A stretch of DNA of 14,363 nucleotides from a virus (taxonomy: Duplodnaviria; Heunggongvirae; Uroviricota; Caudoviricetes), in IMG/VR virus record IMGVR_UViG_2681813233_000009; one strand, 5' to 3'. The position numbers and the translations under genes were made by a program. Positions 1,556 through 14,106 of the stretch are shown one piece after another (the first letter of the stretch is position 1; every line of letters starts with the position of its first letter). The notes beneath the pieces were generated by a model. That model saw nothing but the letters and a program-made list of their open reading frames with translations. It did no database searches and had not been told where the DNA came from.

Positions 1556-2578
1556 CTATTCGGAAGTGACTTGGCTTTGCTTTTTTATCGTTCTGGTTTT
1601 CAACATTTCAATCTGGCCAGCTTCGGTTAATGACCAGAAAGTATTCATGCTGCCATTGGTGGTTTTTAAATATTCAATTTTTATCAAACCATATGCCCTA
1701 AATTGCACTCCTATCGTTTTAAGGTCTTGAGAAGATACTTTTGCTGATGTGCCTCCCTTGCCTGCGACCTTTTGAGCGCTTTTGGCAATTGTGTATGATA
1801 CGCTTGATTCAGTATAATATTGAGTGAGATAGGGGGAGATTGAGTGAAAAATATCCTTCCATTTCATTTTCACGGACCAGTGTTTTGTTCCACCGGGATC
1901 ATACCCGATTCGAGGAAAGGTGGACTCACATCTAAATTCAAAATCATCATCAAAGTCAGCCAGATCCAGATCAAGTGTTTGACTAAGATTACTTGTGGCC
2001 TTGGCTAGTTCACTTTTTAACCATTCATTCTCTTTTTGTAAATCAACCATAGCCCGTAAATCAGTTTCAGAAGACGTTAGGTTGGCTCTTACCCATCCGA
2101 TTGCTGGATAAGTTTTCATCGTTTTACTCATACTTAAAGCAACCAACCCGGGTAAATCTTTGGCTGTTGCCCATGTTTTCCTGAGACGATTGGTTGAGGC
2201 CTTCTCTATAAATGCAGCTAGCTTCTCTCTGAGTTCAGAATCTTTTTCAGATTTGGCTAAAGGTAGATTTTCCGGATTCTCATGTACCAAAACAACGACG
2301 CGTAAACCTTTTGAAACTGCGTAATCGAATTCCTTTTCCGTGTAACTTAAACCATCTTCCGCGACAGAGCCATAACGACCACCAATGATCAGCAGATAAT
2401 AATCACAGTCATCAATTACTTTTTTTATGAACTCCCATTGGCCTTCATCGATTGCTGGGAACAACTCCATGCCTGCTGGAATGCAATCCATTTCCATCAG
2501 AGTTTGTATGACGTGTTTTCGTTCTTCTTCTAAATCCGTAAAAGTTGAACTTACGAAAACCTGGTAACGTTTATCCAT
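1556..2578 (-). CDS. Cargo protein, 340 aa, with N-terminal DUF4062-like motif ([16 protein letters not shown]); candidate defense or abortive-infection protein
   Basis: ATG at 2576-2578 (minus) with AAGGGA RBS; uninterrupted 340-codon ORF; visibly more AT-rich than neighbouring genes; N-terminal FVSSTF-DL-EER motif matches my recollection of the DUF4062 family; central coiled-coil-like segment ([28 protein letters not shown]). Domain assignment not verified by HMM. Confidence 0.8.
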
Positions 2579-2891: not shown

Positions 2892-3571
2892 GCAATGCTC
2901 CTTATGAGCGTTCATTTTAAGGTTTACATGATCCTCTTTGCCTGGCACAATCAAGCCGTCAGAAATGAAGGCAAGGCTAAGATTCATACGAGTTTGGCGA
3001 CTCCTATTGGTCATGCTTTGTAAGCCGGGTTCGTGAAAATGAATCCGGTTTTTTTATGCCTAAAAATCAGGCATGGCACTACATGTGGGGGTGGTCAATC
3101 AATGGTGGCCCCACATAGACGATATTCTAGTGATGATTCTTTTCTGCACAAGGGTTGATTTTGACGTTAAATTGAGGTTGTGAAAGGGTAAAAATGCAAA
3201 ACCCTGCACAGCATAAGGCTTGGAAGACATGTCAATGATTAAGAAAAAAAAATCAAAATTTGATCGAGTGCTGATTTCTTCAACGGGAGGTCAGAATTGC
3301 GCGACATGATGTCGCGTAATCTTTATAAGAATAATGAATGGCATTAGTCGTTTTTGATGGTCTCTTGTAACATATAGTTAACATATAGATGTTCGTGAAG
3401 GGAGAAAGGCGCGAAAGGTAAATGTTATCTGGATAGTCTACCAATGCCTGTACCAGTACGAAAAGAGCGCTAATCATACCGAACTTAATCTCATAAAGGT
3501 TTTCACGAGAGCGAAGGACGTTAACGCTAGATTGCGAAACGAAACATTTCATTCTCTTCAATCTTTGGGTA

Positions 3572-3610
3572 ATAAAAAAGGCTGACCCGTTAAGGTCAGC
3601 CTTCTTAAAA
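3572..3610 (-). terminator. Rho-independent terminator ending the minus-strand capsid operon (bidirectional-looking)
   Basis: 8-bp stem ggctgacc/ggtcagcc (3580-3587 with 3594-3601), loop cgttaa; A-run 3572-3579 on plus (U-run after the stem on the minus RNA); ttctt follows on the plus strand. Confidence 0.6.
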
Positions 3611-3622
3611 TCAATGTGTTAC

Positions 3623-3811
3623 TTACTTCTTTTGACGCTGTTTAGCGATCATAACGTTAAGCGCGTATTCAAAACCGTGTTGCGATTCCAAACGGCTAAA
3701 CGTCACGTTACACAGGCCCAACTCTCTACACAGTGCTTTACGGTTTACGACCTCCGCCGCGCCAGATACATAGACTTGACCAGCGCCGGGGATATTGATT
3801 GAAACTTTCAT
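3623..3811 (-). CDS. Hypothetical small protein, 62 aa, last gene of the capsid operon
   Basis: ATG at 3809-3811 (minus) with GAGGTG upstream; co-directional with the capsid gene and followed by the terminator at 3572-3610. The overlapping plus-strand ORF 3614-3802 lacks this context. Confidence 0.45.
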   Translation of the reverse strand: MKVSINIPGAGQVYVSGAAEVVNRKALCRELGLCNVTFSRLESQHGFEYALNVMIAKQRQKK

Positions 3812-3903: not shown

Positions 3904-4923
3904 TTACTTCAGCTTGACGTTCAGCATGTAGTTCGGGCGCAGGTTCAGAGGAATGAAGCTCGCCTCTTGGTGAACGGTCACCATGCCGTAACGGTCAGTC
4001 ATTACTTTTTGGTAGTAAGGGCTGATCACACCTTTAGCGGAGATATCCTGATTACGTGAAGCCGGGCCGCGTACCAGTTTGAACGGGTTACGATCCGCTG
4101 CACTGAACTTTGGAACGAACAGGCCGGAACCTGCCGCGATTTCGTAGCGGTCATCGTCCGCCAGAATGAAAGTAATGTTGCCAATGCTGAAGGAGTCATA
4201 ACCCGCAGTGTTAACCGGGATCAGAGCGCCTTTTGCAGCCTCCGCCACTTTGTTGGTGATCAGGCTGGTTACTTCTGGGTGGCTCGCCAGAACGTCATAC
4301 AGATCCGGGGAGCAGAAGCAATAGAAGCGGTCCAGATAGGAGCGGCTCGCGCCGTACTCTTTAACCAACATGCGGCGAATCTTCGCAAGCTGTGCATAGA
4401 CGTTAGCGCCTGCTGAACCGTCGAGGTCGAAACTCAGCGGAGCAGTACCAAACACAGCGTTAAAATCTACGTCGCCGTCATCCGTTTTAGCCGCTTTCGC
4501 TTCCTGCTTGAACAGGGCGCGGGCCAGTGTGCTTTCAACTGTTTCCAGATGATAGTTACGCATACGGATAGCTTTATCAGCAATAACAGATGTGATCGCC
4601 TGAGCCTGATCCGGGTTAGCCGGGCTTACCAGGCCTTGCCAGTCAGCGGTTTTTACATCCGCCTCAGTGGCATAGTGTGGGATCTCCTGGTTACGCAGGA
4701 TGGTTTTATCCATCATGATCGCGTTAACTTCGGTGCCATAGCGGGCAACCTGCTCCAGTTCACTAACCTGAGTTTCCACAATATCCACAATCTGGGCGTT
4801 TGGAGTGGTTGAGTTAACATCGGAGAAGATACCCAGATCAGAGATCAGGTAATTACCTGCTGGTTGATCTTTGATCGCCGCTACAGTGTCCAGCTTTTCA
4901 AACTGTTTAAAATCAATAGCCAT
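3904..4923 (-). CDS. Putative phage major capsid protein, 339 aa (family not verified)
   Basis: ATG at 4921-4923 (minus), AGGAA RBS; starts 12 bp after the stop of the upstream small gene (small-gene/capsid-gene arrangement as in lambda D-E); A/D/S/T-rich composition typical of virion proteins. Capsid assignment is by context and gestalt, not by alignment. Confidence 0.6.
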   Translation of the reverse strand: MAIDFKQFEKLDTVAAIKDQPAGNYLISDLGIFSDVNSTTPNAQIVDIVETQVSELEQVARYGTEVNAIMMDKTILRNQEIPHYATEADVKTADWQGLVSPANPDQAQAITSVIADKAIRMRNYHLETVESTLARALFKQEAKAAKTDDGDVDFNAVFGTAPLSFDLDGSAGANVYAQLAKIRRMLVKEYGASRSYLDRFYCFCSPDLYDVLASHPEVTSLITNKVAEAAKGALIPVNTAGYDSFSIGNITFILADDDRYEIAAGSGLFVPKFSAADRNPFKLVRGPASRNQDISAKGVISPYYQKVMTDRYGMVTVHQEASFIPLNLRPNYMLNVKLK

Positions 4924-4935
4924 TGTGTGATTTCC

Positions 4936-5307
4936 TTATGCTTTGAAGTAATCGGCGTTGATAGCCAGGCGAATATCACCGGAGGCTGTCAGCGCTTCCA
5001 GTGCGGCTTTTTTGCTCGCGGCGTCTTTAGCACGTAGGGCAAAATCGGTAATCACAACATGGCGATCCACGATAACCAGCGTTTTAGTCTTGCCATCGGC
5101 GGACATATTGGAAAGGTTAATGATCGGCTTGCCAGCTTCAGCGGCGGCGGAGTCGAACAGGGCAAAAGTTTTGCTGTCCAGAATATCGCCACAGTAGACG
5201 TCAGCCGGGAGGCTTGGGGCGGTTACTTCGGTGCGGTCAAACAGGCTGGAGGCGTAGTTGACGATTACGTCACCTTGCGTTACCGGGTAGCGCTCGGAAG
5301 TTTTCAT
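4936..5307 (-). CDS. Putative head decoration or capsid-associated protein, 123 aa
   Basis: ATG at 5305-5307 (minus) with AAGGAAAA RBS; the track ORF extends to 5451 but lacks an RBS there; tightly coupled (12 bp) to the downstream capsid gene. Confidence 0.5.
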   Translation of the reverse strand: MKTSERYPVTQGDVIVNYASSLFDRTEVTAPSLPADVYCGDILDSKTFALFDSAAAEAGKPIINLSNMSADGKTKTLVIVDRHVVITDFALRAKDAASKKAALEALTASGDIRLAINADYFKA

Positions 5308-5437: not shown

Positions 5438-5467
5438 GAAGAGGGCGGCATCCGCGCCGCCCTTTCT
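5438..5467 (-). terminator. GC hairpin with flanking U-rich tracts upstream of the capsid operon (possible leader terminator)
   Basis: 7-bp stem gggcggc/gccgccc (5443-5449 with 5456-5462), loop atccgc; tttct follows on plus, and tcttctatt follows on the minus RNA; lies about 135 bp upstream of the decoration-gene start. Confidence 0.4.
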
Positions 5468-6551
5468 AATCTGGCTCTCTCTCACCCTCGCGGGTGGGGA
5501 AGGATATTTATCCTTTTGTGTGGATACTTGCCGCCCCTGGTGGCGTCACGTCGAATAGCACCAACCTTTTGGCAAATACCCACAAAAAAGAACCCGGCTG
5601 GAGGAACCGGGGTGGACAATGTAACTTACTGTATGATCACTTGTTTTCCTGTGTAGCCTCAGAGCCTTACATGATTTGCTTTCATGGTTCAGCAAAGAAG
5701 CCACAGAGGAAAACGGGCACCCTGAACGCGCCCGGAAACCATCGACGCAAATCAATAGTTTATCGTTGAGACCAGGTAACCAGCCCGGCCCAACTGTGAC
5801 CCCGTGGAGGGTCGATACAATTGAAGGAGATTCGCTTGTATTCTGAAGAGCCGCAGTTAGCGACGCTTTAGAATAGGGCCTGTGGCGCAAGCACTATGAT
5901 TAGAGGCGTTTTGAATCGTAGGAGTGAAACAATCGGCGGAACTTGAGGAGAGGACCGCACACAAAGCATTCTGGCAAGTGGAGTTGAAAGAACACTTTGG
6001 GTGAGGGCCGGGGCGGGGGAGAAGCCGCCCGGCTCACTCAGTACAGATCCTAATTGCACACGTTGCGACTCTGTACAGGTGGGGGGCGTGACAAGCTGCA
6101 AAACGGTAATTTCGATATCCTCGCCACACCCCACACCATGTATATTAGTTTAACACGAATGATTATCATTTGCAATAAAAATTAATTGCATTGTGTTGAG
6201 TCTTATGATATTGGCGGCCACACACGTGACGGATCAGATCTGCATTAATTTTTATTAGTGAGTGGTCTGACTCAGGGAGGGCTATGTGTCCCAAAAGACA
6301 CACGAAGTAATAATAGATATATAAGACCTCGCTACGCTCGCCCTCCGGGTCCGTCTTATTGATCTTATATAATAACTTCATTCAATAACTAATTGTTTTC
6401 ACAATTAATCATTTCATTCGTTATTATATGATCTTAAAACCTTCTCGCCCTTTGGGCTTACCAGGTTTTAGGCCGGGGCCTATTTCCCCACAATGTAGAG
6501 TCTCGCCTGTGTGGCTCATCTCCCGGGGGGCATTTTGAAACAAGGGTGTAC

Positions 6552-6612
6552 TGACAAAATGTCACAACGTGTTATGACAGATTGGCACAACGTGTTATGA
6601 CAAAATGTCACA
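6552..6612. promoter_or_regulatory. Cluster of dyad-symmetric repeats (operator- or iteron-like)
   Basis: 17-mer cacaacgtgttatgaca occurs twice (6563-6579 and 6586-6602), 6 bp apart; 15-mer tgacaaaatgtcaca occurs twice (6552-6566 and 6598-6612); each unit is itself a near-palindrome (TGACA-aaa-TGTCA; TGTCAcAACG/tGTTaTGACA). Confidence 0.5.
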
Positions 6613-7052
6613 TAATAAGATAAGTATATAAAACACCCTTAAAAGACAAACACCTAGGGCCAGGTCAAGATCTTAAAGAGATTGAGGGTGAATTATTGAT
6701 TGAACAATCAAGAGATCAGACTCTTTAGGAAAGAGCCTTACAGGCTCGCCTCCCTTTTGGGGCAATCGCAGAAACAGAAACCGCAACGCGGTTTTCTTTT
6801 CTGCTCTTTGGGAACACCGGAACGATGTGAAGGTGACATCTGGGCGGCGGGGTGGGGTGCCCGGCGCGGAGTGATACACAGTACAGAACCACAACCCACA
6901 GGAACCAACCTAAACGCGCCTCTGTGGCGCTCTCTCATATGCAGACACGGAAACACCTTATAAACACCCTGCGCCTCACTGAGAGCGTTACAGCGGCTTT
7001 CTATGCCTCTAGCACAATAAACAACTGAGCGCAAGATAAATCAAGAAAGTTG

Positions 7053-7081
7053 TTGCGAATCATTGTCAAATAGTGTAAAAT
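7053..7081 (+). promoter_or_regulatory. Candidate sigma70 promoter for the plus-strand operon
   Basis: TTGCGA (7053-7058), 17-bp spacer, TAAAAT (7076-7081), about 75 bp upstream of the ATG at 7156. Read by eye only. Confidence 0.3.
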
Positions 7082-7155
7082 AGATACTGTGATGAGGTAT
7101 TTATTCGAATATATAGATCCCCATCATACTATAACAAACATGAAAGGAGATTGCA

Positions 7156-9495: not shown

Positions 9496-9870
9496 ATGCA
9501 CCCCTTTGAACTACTGAAACGCCAGCTTGACGAAATGGCGAAATCCCGCCAGGTAGAGCAGGCCCAAGAGGAAGCCGCCGCCCGTGAACTCCGCAAGGCA
9601 CAGGCCGATCTCTCCCTGGACGAGGCTATTGCTCTGTACGGTACACAGTTGGAAGCCTCCACCGATGCAGCAGACAGCGCCCAGAAGGGCCGCGCCATTA
9701 AGAGCCGGGGAATTGCTCTGTGTCACAAGGATCAGGGATTCAGCGCCAACGGTCGCCCTGTGTCTCTCCTGACCAAATCAGCAGATCTGCCAGCAGGTCA
9801 CCGCCGGGTAATCATCAACAAAGCAGCAGGGCGCACCCTGAAGGCTATCAATCTGGAAGGGGCTGAATAA
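9496..9870 (+). CDS. Hypothetical protein, 124 aa, translationally coupled to the tape-measure-like gene
   Basis: ATG at 9496 with AAGGA RBS; its stop overlaps the next ATG (TAATG at 9868-9872). Confidence 0.6.
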   Translation: MHPFELLKRQLDEMAKSRQVEQAQEEAAARELRKAQADLSLDEAIALYGTQLEASTDAADSAQKGRAIKSRGIALCHKDQGFSANGRPVSLLTKSADLPAGHRRVIINKAAGRTLKAINLEGAE

Positions 9871-11990
9871 TGAGCGGTAACGTCATCATCACGAAGACCG
9901 TAAACAGAACTACGTTCACCACGGACGGGGCCAGCTATAAGAAGACGGTTGACCGTATCAAACAGGTGGGGAAAGAGTGGGATAAAGTCTCCTCTAAAAT
10001 GAAGCCTCTACGGATGAAATTTGAGGAAAACGCCTACACCAAGATCCGCCGGAAACAGCAGGACGCCACCGCAAAAGCAGCACTGGCAGAAGCCAAAGCC
10101 AAAGCCGCAGCGGAAGCCAAAGCGGCAAAAGCCCAACTAGCAGCGGAGCGTAAACTCCAGACAATCCGCGCTAAAGCTATTCGCTTTAATACCGCAGCGG
10201 CTAACGCCAACGTTACCCCGGCCCAACGTGCTGGACACCTCCAGGAGTTTGGACAGCTTACGCGCCAGTATCACGCCGGGTCTATGGCATTACAGGAATA
10301 TAACGCCCGTGTGTCACGCCTTCAGCAAACCATGCGCCAACAAGGCCGGGTAGGCATGAGGGGAGCCACAATTCCCGTAACCGCCAAAGTAAACAAACTG
10401 GATACCTCCATGATCGAGGGTGCAGGCGGGGCGATCACAATTGCCGCCACTGTGGCACTCTCCGGCAAGATCATGACTACCGGACAGGATTTTGAATCCG
10501 CTATGTCTGGTCTTACAGCGATCACCGGTTCCACAGAAAAAGCCGGGAAAGAGTTTGATTATCTTCGTGAACAGTCCAACCGTCTGGGGCTGGACCTTCT
10601 GAAAACTTCAAAAGACTATACGCAGTTTGCCGCCGCTGTTGGGGACAAACTCCCTAAAGACCAGATGCGATCCATCTTTGAGGGTGCTTCAGAGTGGGGC
10701 CTTGTTACTGGTGCATCCGCAGATGAGCAATCACGTGCGTTAAAGGCCCTTAACCAGATGATGTCTAAGGGTACGGTCATGAGTGAAGAACTTAAAGGCC
10801 AGTTGTCCGAGGCTCTCCCCGGCTCTGTGGGTCTGTTCGTTAAAGCCCTTAACGACATGAAAGGCGTTACCAACCTGACCGAGCAAGATTTGTTTAAGCT
10901 GATGGAAGACGGGAAGCTGTTCTCTAAGGACATCCTCCCACATGTGGCTAAACAGATGAAGGAAGCGGCCCGGCAGGGTGGCGCACTTGATAAGGCGATG
11001 AAGTCCAACCGGGCATCATGGCAGCGCCTCAATACCAGTATGCAGAACGCTATGAATGTGTTTTTCACTTCTGGCTTCGGTAACTCCCTTACCAACGCTT
11101 TCGACTCAATCAGCGCCGCTATTGACGGATCTGGTGGAGCCTTTGAGATGTTCGGGCATATCGCCGGGAAAATCGTTGAAGGTGCCACAGATGCGTTTAC
11201 AGAGTTGCATGACACTGTGATCCTGACCTTCCGCATTATTGAGTATTACGCCGCCAAAATGGGGATCAGTGGGGAGCAGCTCAAAGCCTGGGGAGAAATG
11301 GCAGCATATGCCGCCGGGGTGGCTCTGTTCGCTGGCTCTGTTTACAAGTTGGGCGGGGCTTTCAAGTGGGTCCTCACCATGCTGAACCCTCTTACCAAGT
11401 TGTTGGGAGTCATGAAGGGGATCGCCGCTATTGGTGGCATTGAGGCCGCTTCTGAAGCTCTGAGCGACGGTAAGCCAGGTAAAGACGGCCAGCCGGGCAA
11501 ACCGGGAACCCCATCAAAGAACACCAAGCCGATCGGCGCGGGCCGTGGCGTTAACTTTGGCCTCCCGGCTATTATCGCCGCTGTATCTCTGAATGACCGC
11601 CTTGATCAGATTCAGGCAGACCCGGAAGCGTTTAAGCGAAAGGTACAGGAGAATAATGATCGGCCTACGCTGTGGACTGACATCATGGAAGCATTCTCCG
11701 GCAGTTGGTACGAAAAGCAGCAGAACGCAAACCAGCAGGCAGCACAGACCGCAGCACTCGATCAGACTGTTCGTGTTGCTGTTCCAACCTTCATCCCTCC
11801 AACCACAGCGACGGTTACAGGTGGCTACGGTAATCCACTGATGACGCCGCCAGCGTGGCTAAACCAGCCGCTAAACGTGAGCGTTAATGTGAAGGTGCAA
11901 GATGGACAGGTGAAAAACCTTGTGCAATCTGAGATTGAACGTAATGAACAGGCGGCATTTAACATGCTGATGCAGGGCGGGCCAAACTAA
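9870..11990 (+). CDS. Phage tail tape-measure-like protein, 706 aa
   Basis: N-terminal Ala/Lys-rich coiled-coil (AKAALAEAKAKAAAEAKAAKAQLAAERKL); central segment LKGQLSEALPGSVGLFVKALNDMKGVTNLTEQDLFKLMEDGKLFSKDILPHVAKQMKEAAR resembles the conserved tape-measure motif as I recall it; hydrophobic Gly/Ala-rich segments; collagen-like GKPGKDGQPGKPGTP; followed by a terminator. Confidence 0.8.
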   Translation: MSGNVIITKTVNRTTFTTDGASYKKTVDRIKQVGKEWDKVSSKMKPLRMKFEENAYTKIRRKQQDATAKAALAEAKAKAAAEAKAAKAQLAAERKLQTIRAKAIRFNTAAANANVTPAQRAGHLQEFGQLTRQYHAGSMALQEYNARVSRLQQTMRQQGRVGMRGATIPVTAKVNKLDTSMIEGAGGAITIAATVALSGKIMTTGQDFESAMSGLTAITGSTEKAGKEFDYLREQSNRLGLDLLKTSKDYTQFAAAVGDKLPKDQMRSIFEGASEWGLVTGASADEQSRALKALNQMMSKGTVMSEELKGQLSEALPGSVGLFVKALNDMKGVTNLTEQDLFKLMEDGKLFSKDILPHVAKQMKEAARQGGALDKAMKSNRASWQRLNTSMQNAMNVFFTSGFGNSLTNAFDSISAAIDGSGGAFEMFGHIAGKIVEGATDAFTELHDTVILTFRIIEYYAAKMGISGEQLKAWGEMAAYAAGVALFAGSVYKLGGAFKWVLTMLNPLTKLLGVMKGIAAIGGIEAASEALSDGKPGKDGQPGKPGTPSKNTKPIGAGRGVNFGLPAIIAAVSLNDRLDQIQADPEAFKRKVQENNDRPTLWTDIMEAFSGSWYEKQQNANQQAAQTAALDQTVRVAVPTFIPPTTATVTGGYGNPLMTPPAWLNQPLNVSVNVKVQDGQVKNLVQSEIERNEQAAFNMLMQGGPN

Positions 11991-12060: not shown

Positions 12061-12627
12061 TCATAACAGATCCGCTATTGAATATTTATCACTAAAATCA
12101 TCTACTTTGCGTTGTGTGGCCCCAATGTAATGAAGCGTACTGGATAACGATTTGTGCCCTAATGCTTTACTAATTACAGCTATATCCTCCCCATTGTCAT
12201 AACCAATCGTTGGTTTACTCTTCCTCATGCTGTGGGTCGAAAGATTCAGCCCCAGCTTTTCCCCGGCGTAGCTAATTTCCTCATGCAATTTGGAGCGGCT
12301 CACAGGTTTTCCCTTGCTCCTGTGGCTGTCCAACTGTAAGAGGTACACATTATCAGGGTTAGCCTCTCTCCGGGCCGCTATGATGCGTTTAGCGGTATCG
12401 GTAAGCCTCACCCGGACAGATTCACCCGTTTTCTGTTGGGACAGGACAAGGTGATCGCCTTTGATGTCGGCATAACGGATAGAGCGCAGATCCGACACCC
12501 TCAGCATTAATTCATAACCCAATAACCAGGCGTCACGGTACAGCGTCAGCCCCTTGCCCTGTTTGAGTAGCTCAACTGCTACCGCTTTCACTTCCTGAAC
12601 TGATTTACAGCCCTCTACGAAATTCAT
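12061..12627 (-). CDS. Small tyrosine recombinase, catalytic domain only (FimB/FimE-sized), 188 aa
   Basis: ATG at 12625-12627 (minus) with GGAGAG RBS; the track ORF begins at an upstream TTG without an RBS; motifs LRVSDLRSIRYADI (Arg), HSMRKS (His-x-x-Arg), LGHKSLSSTLHY (His and Tyr). Confidence 0.8.
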   Translation of the reverse strand: MNFVEGCKSVQEVKAVAVELLKQGKGLTLYRDAWLLGYELMLRVSDLRSIRYADIKGDHLVLSQQKTGESVRVRLTDTAKRIIAARREANPDNVYLLQLDSHRSKGKPVSRSKLHEEISYAGEKLGLNLSTHSMRKSKPTIGYDNGEDIAVISKALGHKSLSSTLHYIGATQRKVDDFSDKYSIADLL

Positions 12628-13020
12628 TCTGTACTCTCCAGAACCTAACTGTGATAAATTTTTGATCAAAAACAAGCACTTGTAAACGACAAAAATTATT
12701 AATTTTAAGTTGTGTCTTTTTAGTGAATTAAATCGGGTTTAATCGCGTTTAATGGCAGAGTAATGACCCGGCAGGGGAGGTAATGGGCTGTTTATGTGGG
12801 TAAAAGATGGTTGCTTAATGTACTATTACCACAAGACGGGTAAGGTGATTTGACTCCCTCAGTTCCTTTAAGCTACTGTATTTATGGGAAATTAATTATT
12901 GTTTCTTTATGGTGTTGCCTGGCAAATTTTCAGTTTACCCTCAAGAAAAATCCCCATCTTTTTTATTCTCCACATGAGAATAAATTTTGTTTGCAAATAT
13001 CACTCATTCTCAACTCCAGT

Positions 13021-13832: not shown

Positions 13833-13981
13833 GTGCCTGCCATTTATCTGTGGGTCACAACGTGAGACACAAACTGGGACACAGAGGATTTTTTAGGGTT
13901 GAGTCTTTGGCTTCCCGCTGGCATGATCCAGAACAGGGATTAACGGGACGTTAATCGCAAGCTTTTGATTTTGTTTTATTT

Positions 13982-14106
13982 GACTCGGGGTGCCCTTCTG
14001 CGTGAAGGCTGAGAAATACCCGTATCACCTGATCTGGATAATGCCAGCGTAGGGAAGTCACGGACCACCAGGTCATTGCTTCTTCACGTTATGGCAGGAG
14101 CAAACT
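13982..14106 (+). promoter_or_regulatory. TPP (THI-box) riboswitch of thiM: aptamer plus expression platform
   Basis: Sequence gactcggggtgcccttctgcgtgaaggctgagaaatacccgtatcacctgatctggataatgccagcgtagggaag matches the E. coli thiM TPP aptamer as I recall it (including the conserved CUGAGA element); it runs into the thiM RBS (aggag at 14096-14100). Confidence 0.9.
14033..14052. repeat. attR-side copy of att core, lying inside the TPP aptamer
   Basis: Identical to positions 1-20. Confidence 0.7.

Follow-up and report, generated by a model that had tools for sequence, protein, structure and literature searches.

Type I toxin–antitoxin loci that stand under stress-repressor operators include tisB/istR-1 and dinQ/agrB, both with LexA boxes, and hok/sok is also counted here. 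The repressor NrdR is regarded as dedicated to ribonucleotide reductase operons. It recognizes two partly palindromic 16-bp boxes separated by a linker of 15–16 bp (PMC12176259; bioRxiv 10.64898/2026.05.11.724285), and the key positions within each box are C4, A6, A8, T9, T11 and G13 (bioRxiv 10.64898/2026.05.11.724285). In the nrdAB promoter of Salmonella, which is of the same U/D type as the element described below, the first NrdR box overlaps the −10 element, mutation of either box increases nrdAB expression, and mutation of the second box leads to full derepression (PMC2892513). In this study, we analysed a 14,363-nucleotide stretch of DNA from a virus of the class Caudoviricetes (IMG/VR record IMGVR_UViG_2681813233_000009; hereafter, the window), focusing on an AT-rich spacer at positions 3015–3560 that contains an 8-bp inverted repeat, or dyad. 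The original prediction, made from the DNA letters, had taken this spacer for the probable promoter and control region of cargo genes on the minus strand. Our analysis suggests, with a probability of approximately 0.6, that the spacer is a composite control region formed around a captured host nrdAB (class Ia ribonucleotide reductase) promoter together with its NrdR operator.

A BLAST search of the spacer against plasmid records gave approximately 30 matches to window positions 3123–3282 or 3123–3384. Several of these ‘plasmid’ records were in fact chromosomal Klebsiella DNA, in which the matching segment separates ubiG from nrdA and immediately precedes the latter (75–76% identity over 262 bp, E ~1e-42). 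A genome scan using one genome per species and a 21-base pattern from the promoter core detected 56 loci, all in Enterobacteriaceae. In approximately 46 species of this family, the segment corresponding to window 3123–3384 (~71–84% identity) was flanked by the coding sequences of ubiG and nrdA, and it therefore represents the nrdAB promoter region. As judged from these alignments (E-values down to 1e-42 and better), 3123–3384 is a paralogue of the chromosomal ubiG–nrdA intergenic region, colinear with it and still attached to a remnant of the flanking gene. This remnant, at 3344–3382 on the minus strand, consists of the last 12 codons of ubiG and the stop codon; its translation is VNYMLQETIKND, compared with GVDVNYMLHTTAKQD in Klebsiella, and the stop is at the same place. 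The ubiG tail of Enterobacter asburiae reads VNYMLHTTAKND, ending in AKND before the stop; the relic as a whole has the form VNYML...ND followed by the stop. DNA homology to the chromosomal locus stops at 3384–3387. Since the copy includes a ubiG tail with its stop codon, the direction of transfer was from the chromosome to the mobile element.

The order of the other parts also agrees with the chromosomal locus. A 17-bp palindrome on the minus strand at 3300–3316 (CGCGACAT-G-ATGTCGCG), which folds at z −3.53, aligns with the GCGCGGC...GCCGCG hairpin located right after the ubiG stop in Klebsiella, indicating that the hairpin was retained with different stem bases; this hairpin would be the ubiG terminator. 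The upstream regulatory part at 3152–3299 (minus strand), with an A/T tract at 3241–3261 and the conserved blocks CACTCGATCAAATTTT and CCTCAATTTAACGTCAAAATCAACCC (sense), is 75–84% identical to the ubiG–nrdA intergenic DNA of many Enterobacteriaceae and is the most conserved part across all mobile-element copies. It is followed at 3124–3151 by a predicted sigma-70 promoter on the minus strand, in which a −35 element TTGTGC (reverse complement of 3146–3151) and a −10 element TAGAAT (reverse complement of 3124–3129) are separated by a 16-nt spacer. In the alignment, the arrangement TTGTRC-16-TAGAAT/TAAAAT is kept in both the chromosomal nrdAB promoters and the mobile-element copies. The predicted start lies 7–8 nt past the −10 element, at 3117–3116, and the orientation of the captured copy would direct transcription along the minus strand to a gene for an 88-aa protein, in agreement with the predicted role of the spacer as a control region for minus-strand genes.

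Compared with the nrdAB promoter of Enterobacteriaceae (PMC12176259, PMC2892513), the window is homologous over ~260–300 bp and shows the same order of parts: the ubiG end, the hairpin, the AT-rich upstream part, the −35/−10 elements and two boxes at the start. Unlike that promoter, the copy in the window is part of a mobile island, and downstream of it an unrelated leader and the 88-aa gene take the place of nrdA; in addition, its box U is degenerate, its inner half-sites form a perfect covarying dyad, and it lacks the DnaA boxes found after box D in Klebsiella-type chromosomes. A further likeness to the nrdA leader and its first codons (ATGAATC... at 2987) was seen by eye only, and we do not claim it. 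The AT-richness of the spacer, as predicted, is clear (GC content of 0.397 in 3015–3560 versus 0.485 over the whole window). Its proposed resemblance to horizontally acquired DNA silenced by nucleoid proteins was not supported, because the AT-rich core was copied from an intergenic region of the core genome, to which a ubiG tail is still attached.

We then compared the two boxes. Box D (3076–3091, minus strand; sense CCCCCACATGTAGTGC) is homologous to nrdAB box 1, or Salmonella NrdR2, and matches all six key positions. Box U (3108–3123, minus strand; sense ATCGTCTATGTGGGGC) is homologous to nrdAB box 0, or Salmonella NrdR1, and is partly degenerate. The 16-nt linker between them (3092–3107, no strand assigned) makes up most of the ‘loop’ of the dyad, and the boxes show the canonical NrdR spacing of 32 bp from centre to centre. 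Among 45 chromosomal nrdA promoters, box U (ACTCACCATATAGCGT) is nearly invariant with five of six key positions and also has C6, box D (CCCCTAYATRTAGTAT) is nearly invariant with all six, and the 16-nt linker varies in sequence; the boxes of the window are located at the same offset from the anchor. The box pair was likewise found at this offset in 28 of 28 other mobile-element copies examined, with six of six key positions in box D save in one shortened locus, and the linker is 15–16 nt in all copies, its sequence being free to vary. Box U of the window abuts the predicted −10 element TAGAAT, at the position seen in the Salmonella/Klebsiella-type nrdAB promoter. No nrdA or ubiG coding sequence was found at the mobile-element loci examined, and the gene downstream of the boxes in the window encodes the 88-aa hypothetical protein rather than a ribonucleotide reductase. 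By sequence, the element is a paralogue of a known regulatory region: an NrdR-type promoter that does not serve a ribonucleotide reductase, with added features of type I toxin–antitoxin loci.

The predicted dyad is present exactly as claimed, with the arms ATGTGGGG (3083–3090) and CCCCACAT (3109–3116) and an 18-nt spacer. Its arms correspond to box positions D9–D2 and U15–U8, so that the whole dyad (3083–3116, no strand assigned) is built from the inner half of each box. The window contains 17 perfect 8-bp inverted repeats with spacers of 3–30 nt, compared with 6.7 ± 3.2 in shuffles, and a single 8-bp dyad is not beyond chance. It is the conservation and covariation in homologues that point to a non-random dyad. 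In 14 distinct operators from the lineage sharing the leader of the window, 92% of the arm cells pair, and the covariation score was reached in 0 of 500 shuffles. Of the arm positions, the four that coincide with NrdR key positions are invariant, and the four non-key positions change on both sides, including U10/D7 (G-C to A-U), U12/D5 (eight A-U versus six G-C) and U14/D3 (ten G-C versus four U-A). Five arm versions were identified (ATGTGGGG/CCCCACAT, ATGTAGGG/CCCTACAT, ATGTAGTA/TACTACAT, ATGTAGTG/CACTACAT and TATAGGGG/CCCCTATA), each forming a perfect 8-bp dyad with a free loop, even before an identical 88-aa protein; four of them fill the frame ATGTnnnn/nnnnACAT with GGGG/CCCC, AGGG/CCCT, AGTA/TACT and AGTG/CACT. 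The conservation of the dyad in homologous islands, named in the original prediction as its test, was thus observed, and at the operator position.

These results suggest that the dyad has a role in addition to that of the operator. The complementarity of the inner halves averages 6.9/8 in the lineage of the window versus 5.2/8 in chromosomes, and in the window itself the between-box complementarity is 7/8, compared with a within-box palindromy of 2/8 for box U and 5/8 for box D. Recognition by NrdR alone does not appear to explain this excess of inter-box complementarity, and the covariation of arm positions that NrdR does not need argues for an added hairpin. Since the predicted start is the first base of the stem, a 5′-terminal mRNA hairpin would be the simplest added role. 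Stem-loops at the 5′ terminus are known to stabilise mRNAs, as in the ompA 5′ untranslated region. As in the ompA-type stem, the stem of the window is predicted to lie 0–1 nt from the 5′ end of the transcript, and its arms covary; unlike that stem, it is predicted only, has an 18-nt loop and ordinary stability, and its DNA doubles as a repressor site.

Within the leader, a candidate gene for a cis-antisense small RNA (sRNA) of approximately 100 nt was identified on the plus strand at 2958–3058 (both ends predicted), complementary to the minus-strand leader. Its promoter at 2923–2951 (plus strand) was called by the promoter scan and consists of a −35 element TTTACA (2923–2928), a 17-nt spacer and a −10 element CACAAT (2946–2951). 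Both hexamers are invariant in 11 homologues and the 17-nt spacer varies at many positions, a pattern that indicates selection on promoters. The putative sRNA ends at a plus-strand terminator (z −4.96) composed of a hairpin at 3022–3051 and a run of seven T residues reaching 3058. The region 2958–3058 folds with a minimum free energy of −34.3 kcal/mol (z −3.98); a conserved stem-loop is present between the promoter and the terminator hairpin, and the inner stem of the latter has been rebuilt with different bases among the copies. The consensus structure includes 27 pairs with 98.3% pairing; four of the pairs show compensatory changes, and several invariant G-U pairs fit the plus strand only, since they become A-C on the other strand. 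A covariance model gave one match per locus in 17 loci, seven of which were outside the set used for model building, with scores of 101–116 bits and always antisense to the leader. The sRNA gene and the minus-strand promoter are convergent, at a distance of 158 bp, and the sRNA matches the complement of the leader from approximately +59 to +159. With its own predicted promoter and terminator and a conserved structure opposite the target leader, 2958–3058 qualifies as a candidate cis-antisense sRNA gene. The original prediction missed this gene and its terminator (3022–3058), although together they extend into 3015–3560. An E-value-based search of the window against Rfam detected only a thiamine pyrophosphate (TPP) riboswitch and a terminator-driven partial match to HrrF at 3574–3661.

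At some loci, the unit of promoter, leader and sRNA precedes the 88-aa gene, and at others a 304-aa gene unrelated to it; the unit was seen in satellites and other chromosomal islands and at the end of a prophage. Like the type I toxin–antitoxin loci, the window combines a repressor operator, located at the promoter, with a long structured leader that is overlapped by a candidate antisense RNA with its own promoter and terminator, and sister copies of the module often drive hydrophobic peptides of 27–28 aa. Unlike these loci, the operator is of NrdR type and not of LexA type, and the product is a soluble-looking, Cys-rich protein of 88 aa, without a family match, instead of a small toxic membrane peptide. 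Compared with known type I toxin–antitoxin systems, the module gave no family match in Rfam, Pfam or NCBIfam.

The 88-aa gene, encoding a Cys-rich hypothetical protein (phrog_3941), is located on the minus strand at 2625–2891, with its start at 2891, directly downstream of the control region. It had been called as part of a longer ORF of 129 aa, from which the left border of the spacer at 3015 was derived. The PHROG match (phrog_3941) spans residues 43–122 of this ORF, homologues of the protein are 84–91 aa in length, the E. coli homologue is annotated as 88 aa, and tblastn with the latter aligned to 2891–2625. In addition, a 1-nt indel in relatives disrupts the longer ORF upstream of the 88-aa start. 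We therefore rejected the 129-aa ORF as a gene, on the basis of the length of the homologues and of the indel in its supposed N-terminal extension; its call at the border 3015 is probably wrong. Because the gene is 88 aa and not 129 aa, the true non-coding stretch is 2892–3622, so that the predicted AT-rich stretch stands with a revised left border.

Identical copies of the 88-aa protein are listed in 876 blocks of a public collection, in several unrelated contexts, and the module was found upstream in all five of the 88-aa loci examined. The contexts of the window and loci L125–L129 include sites beside proBA/phoE/crl, sites beside contact-dependent-inhibition toxin genes, and satellite-like islands with DUF4062 and an integrase; at each 88-aa locus, 1–2.5 kb upstream is without a called gene. 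The cargo of the island had no PADLOC match. A terminator-like hairpin on the minus strand at 2597–2616 (eight pairs, six of them G-C, and a short T-run) separates the 88-aa gene from that of the DUF4062 protein; the captured promoter may therefore serve the 88-aa gene alone, or allow partial readthrough. The predicted control of minus-strand cargo is supported, with the 88-aa gene as the one that the captured promoter would serve most directly.

The remainder of the spacer, at 3385–3574, is AT-rich DNA without a detected DNA homologue (no strand assigned); in the DNA homology search of the spacer, nothing past 3384 matched in phages or plasmids. The only mechanical ORF inside 3015–3560 is one of 93 aa with a TTG start (3280–3561, minus strand), consistent with the predicted scarcity of ORFs. 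It has no match in Pfam, PHROG or PADLOC, it crosses segments of differing origin, and its frame differs from that of the ubiG relic; accordingly, it was rejected as a gene. Just upstream of the ubiG relic, 3433–3486 (minus strand) may contain a decayed small hydrophobic ORF: its translation FGMISALFVLVQALVDY resembles the C-terminal part of the hydrophobic peptides of sister modules, with a Smith-Waterman score of 43 against FKIVPPLVVIVQAIVEY that was reached in 0 of 2000 shuffles. This similarity was found post hoc and is no more than suggestive; tblastn did not report it. The terminator predicted on the capsid side is real: a Rho-independent terminator of the gene block for a 62-aa protein and the capsid is located on the minus strand at 3575–3606, with 13-nt arms (92% complementary) followed by a U-run, and it folds at −21.2 kcal/mol (z −6.68).

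The captured promoter is not confined to the window. It was detected in at least 17 IMG/VR viral contigs, in phage-plasmid-like, non-mobilizable plasmids of 85–130 kb that carry phage genes, and in prophages. In the viral contigs and plasmids, an A-run comes after the promoter, together with a hairpin that would act as a terminator for the other strand; a conserved leader of roughly 300–400 nt then precedes one or two tiny hydrophobic ORFs, such as MVALLLKIVPPMFVIINAIIEYVNQRP. The hydrophobic peptides of the sister modules (27–28 aa, for example MVNLIFKIVPPLVVIVQAIVEYVNQRP) are encoded on the sense strand ~450–700 nt after the anchor CACTCGATCAAATTTT, and the sister leader holds a repeated AATGTATCTGGCGACT. 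These modules are found at loci L022, L011, L017, L020, L005, L003, L042, L030, L018, L019, L024, L037 and L107. The peptides have no Pfam or NCBIfam match, and the sister loci gave only weak RNAI-like and OrzO-like matches in Rfam. From this organization, the sister modules look like an undescribed type I toxin–antitoxin-like family under an nrdAB-type promoter. The sRNA covariance model misses the antisense region of these toxin-type modules (E 0.3–0.9), and the sRNA of the window and these regions are therefore not established as one RNA family. A scan of viral contigs with the leader pattern gave chance matches only.

A neighbour-joining tree of the 167-nt promoter core (window about 3124–3290), a short alignment without support values, placed the mobile-element copies scattered among chromosomal clades (Klebsiella-like, Citrobacter-like and Enterobacter-like). 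The copies in E. coli satellites differ by 8% from Klebsiella nrdA, those at L037 and L107 by 6% from Citrobacter, and the group of the window is nearest to Enterobacter. Such a distribution hints either at several capture events or at gene conversion from the copy of the resident host.

Several observations weigh against the interpretation of the spacer as a captured promoter under NrdR control. Box U of the window retains only four of the six key positions, having G4 and C6, and C4/G13 have been described as critical and C6 as weakening binding (bioRxiv 10.64898/2026.05.11.724285). The homologous pair of box 0 and box 1 of E. coli nrdAB was not bound by E. coli NrdR in vitro (PMC12176259). 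Because of these two points, NrdR control of this copy could be weak or lost, and the supposed binding of NrdR appears to be the weakest step of the argument; in Salmonella, on the other hand, whose boxes are of the copied type, repression in vivo depends on both of them (PMC2892513). The window shows no enrichment of the core NrdR pattern CNANATNTNG (three found versus four expected), and the boxes are therefore assigned by homology, not by motif matching. The minus-strand promoter at 3124–3151, identified by alignment, was not called by the consensus promoter scan proposed as a check, because its −35 element matches the consensus at three of six positions only. Folded as RNA, the dyad does not exceed shuffles in stability (z −0.43), the covariation sets are small (14 and 9 distinct sequences) with related members, and the covariation could have arisen by templated mutation in a quasi-palindrome, without selection. 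Finally, the transcription starts on both strands and the ends of the sRNA are predictions.

The lack of C4 and A6 in box U, both reported to be important, would be readily explained if the promoter had remained active after NrdR control was lost, the dyad being kept as a hairpin (a 5′ mRNA stem against decay, or a DNA cruciform) and the sRNA acting as the main regulator. A between-box complementarity higher than the within-box palindromy, covariation exactly at the positions that NrdR leaves free, and the coincidence of the predicted start with the first base of the stem all fit such a locus. We nevertheless consider this explanation doubtful, since a plain hairpin needs neither a fixed linker nor the key positions: the linker has been kept at 15–16 nt, the six key positions of box D and the facing four of box U are invariant in 14 of 14 operators, and the stability of the hairpin is unremarkable. 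Templated mutation in quasi-palindromes is an established mechanism, and it could have perfected the symmetry of the boxes in a decaying relic without function; a single 8-bp inverted repeat within chance expectation, and a ubiG tail carried along as non-functional passenger DNA, are both in line with this. Decay is improbable, however, given that the promoter core, boxes, leader and sRNA are 73–100% conserved across elements, hosts and downstream genes while the flanks differ, that the widely listed 88-aa protein (876 blocks) was preceded by the module at five of five loci, and that the sRNA promoter hexamers are conserved around a variable spacer.

Proteins other than NrdR were also considered. 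The island encodes helix-turn-helix (HTH) proteins and the region is AT-rich, so a repressor encoded by the island or by its helper phage might use the dyad as an operator, or the spacer might be xenogeneic DNA silenced by H-NS, as the original prediction had hinted; H-NS is reported to bind the nrdA promoter (PMC12176259, discussion). Such a role is highly improbable for an operator that occurs in chromosomes, prophage ends, plasmids and satellites without a common regulator gene, whose arms, 26 bp apart from centre to centre, show a compensatory drift that misfits a fixed protein operator, and whose AT-rich core is of core-genome origin. Our own first hypothesis was a packaging (cos/pac), replication or recombination site copied from a helper, based on the ~160–200 bp (3123–3320) in common with 85–130 kb non-mobilizable plasmids carrying phage genes. 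It was dropped once the shared DNA had been recognized as the ubiG–nrdA intergenic region, and we now regard it as the most improbable of the alternatives: this DNA is the core of the nrdAB promoter, which chromosomes carry between ubiG and nrdA as well; in plasmids it does not lie beside terminase genes and is followed by the leader and tiny ORFs; and the dyad is outside the stretch of detectable BLAST homology. We likewise rejected an invertible promoter acting as a switch for the small tyrosine recombinase next to the element in E. coli, as the homologue in the window is 9 kb away (12061–12675), and no flanking inverted repeats stood out in the window.

The island that carries the element, approximately 14 kb in length, makes up essentially the whole window. 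Its two ends are marked by a perfect direct repeat of 20 nt, TCTGGATAATGCCAGCGTAG, at positions 1–20 and 14033–14052, and this repeat falls within the TPP riboswitch at 13976–14072 (Rfam, 74.8 bits, above the gathering threshold). The island seems to integrate into the TPP riboswitch and to rebuild it; the related locus L125 has a junction like that in the TPP riboswitch of the window. The gene order is integrase (108–1463), DUF4062 protein (1556–2578, minus strand), the 88-aa gene, the spacer, and then, all on the minus strand, the 62-aa gene, a gpE-like capsid gene and a gpD-like gene; beyond the latter are an ORF-poor region of 1.7 kb, HTH/replication-like genes, a 706-aa protein and a small tyrosine recombinase. 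The gpE-like major capsid gene (Pfam E 1.3e-16) and the weak gpD-like gene are located at 3904–5307, and the 706-aa protein, with a tape-measure N-terminal domain, is encoded at 9870–11990; related islands encode TMP_3, DUF6945 and Phage_phiTE_211 proteins. Like the cargo and defence hotspots of P4-like satellites and P2-like phages (PMC9122126), the island carries variable cargo beside the integrase and before capsid-related genes; that study does not appear to describe a host-derived promoter cassette. Unlike P4-like satellites, the island has gpE-like capsid, gpD-like and tape-measure-domain proteins. Its gene set is unusual for a satellite, being neither P4-like nor obviously like that of phage-inducible chromosomal islands (PICI).

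In the 1.7 kb at 5450–7150, which is without a convincing ORF, three 21-nt iteron-like repeats (GTGTACTGACAAAATGTCACA) were observed at 6546–6612 with a 23-nt spacing, each containing the palindrome TGACA-AAA-TGTCA. A segment of ~110–150 bp in the same region (6279–6427) is 73–80% similar to ~150-kb myoviruses of Enterobacter, Pectobacterium and Cronobacter, namely, vB_ExiM_F1M1E, vB_PcaM_P7_Pc and CR3, which may be helpers.

Based on the captured nrdAB promoter and its operator, a model of regulation can be outlined. Transcription on the minus strand would start near 3116–3117, and NrdR would repress the captured promoter until falling dATP, under replication stress and possibly during phage DNA synthesis, relieves the repression. 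The mRNA would begin with the 8-bp stem AUGUGGGG...CCCCACAU, giving the dyad a second role in this lineage, such as stabilisation of the 5′ end. The convergent sRNA of ~100 nt, fully complementary to the leader, would probably lower expression by antisense pairing or transcriptional interference, as in type I toxin–antitoxin loci. More broadly, and only tentatively, we propose that mobile elements of Enterobacteriaceae, including satellite-like islands, prophages and phage-plasmid-like plasmids, may have captured the nrdAB promoter and NrdR operator as a sensor of deoxynucleotides and replication stress, so that small membrane toxins or other cargo would be switched on when dATP falls, for example during phage DNA replication, and would be held in check by the sRNA. 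The captured DNA might be kept matched to the local host by gene conversion or recapture, and the modules might form an undescribed class of NrdR-controlled type I toxin–antitoxin or abortive-infection systems. In a literature search, no study was found that connects NrdR with prophage toxins, with satellites or with defence, which does not prove that none exists.

Promoter captures whose direction is evident from the sequence itself are rare, and the ubiG relic makes this one unambiguous. If the proposal is true, the NrdR regulon would extend to the toxins and cargo of phages and satellites, and the ratio of dATP to ATP would offer these elements a simple means of sensing replication stress or phage infection. 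A captured promoter of this kind could thus tie a cargo gene to the DNA-precursor status of the cell.

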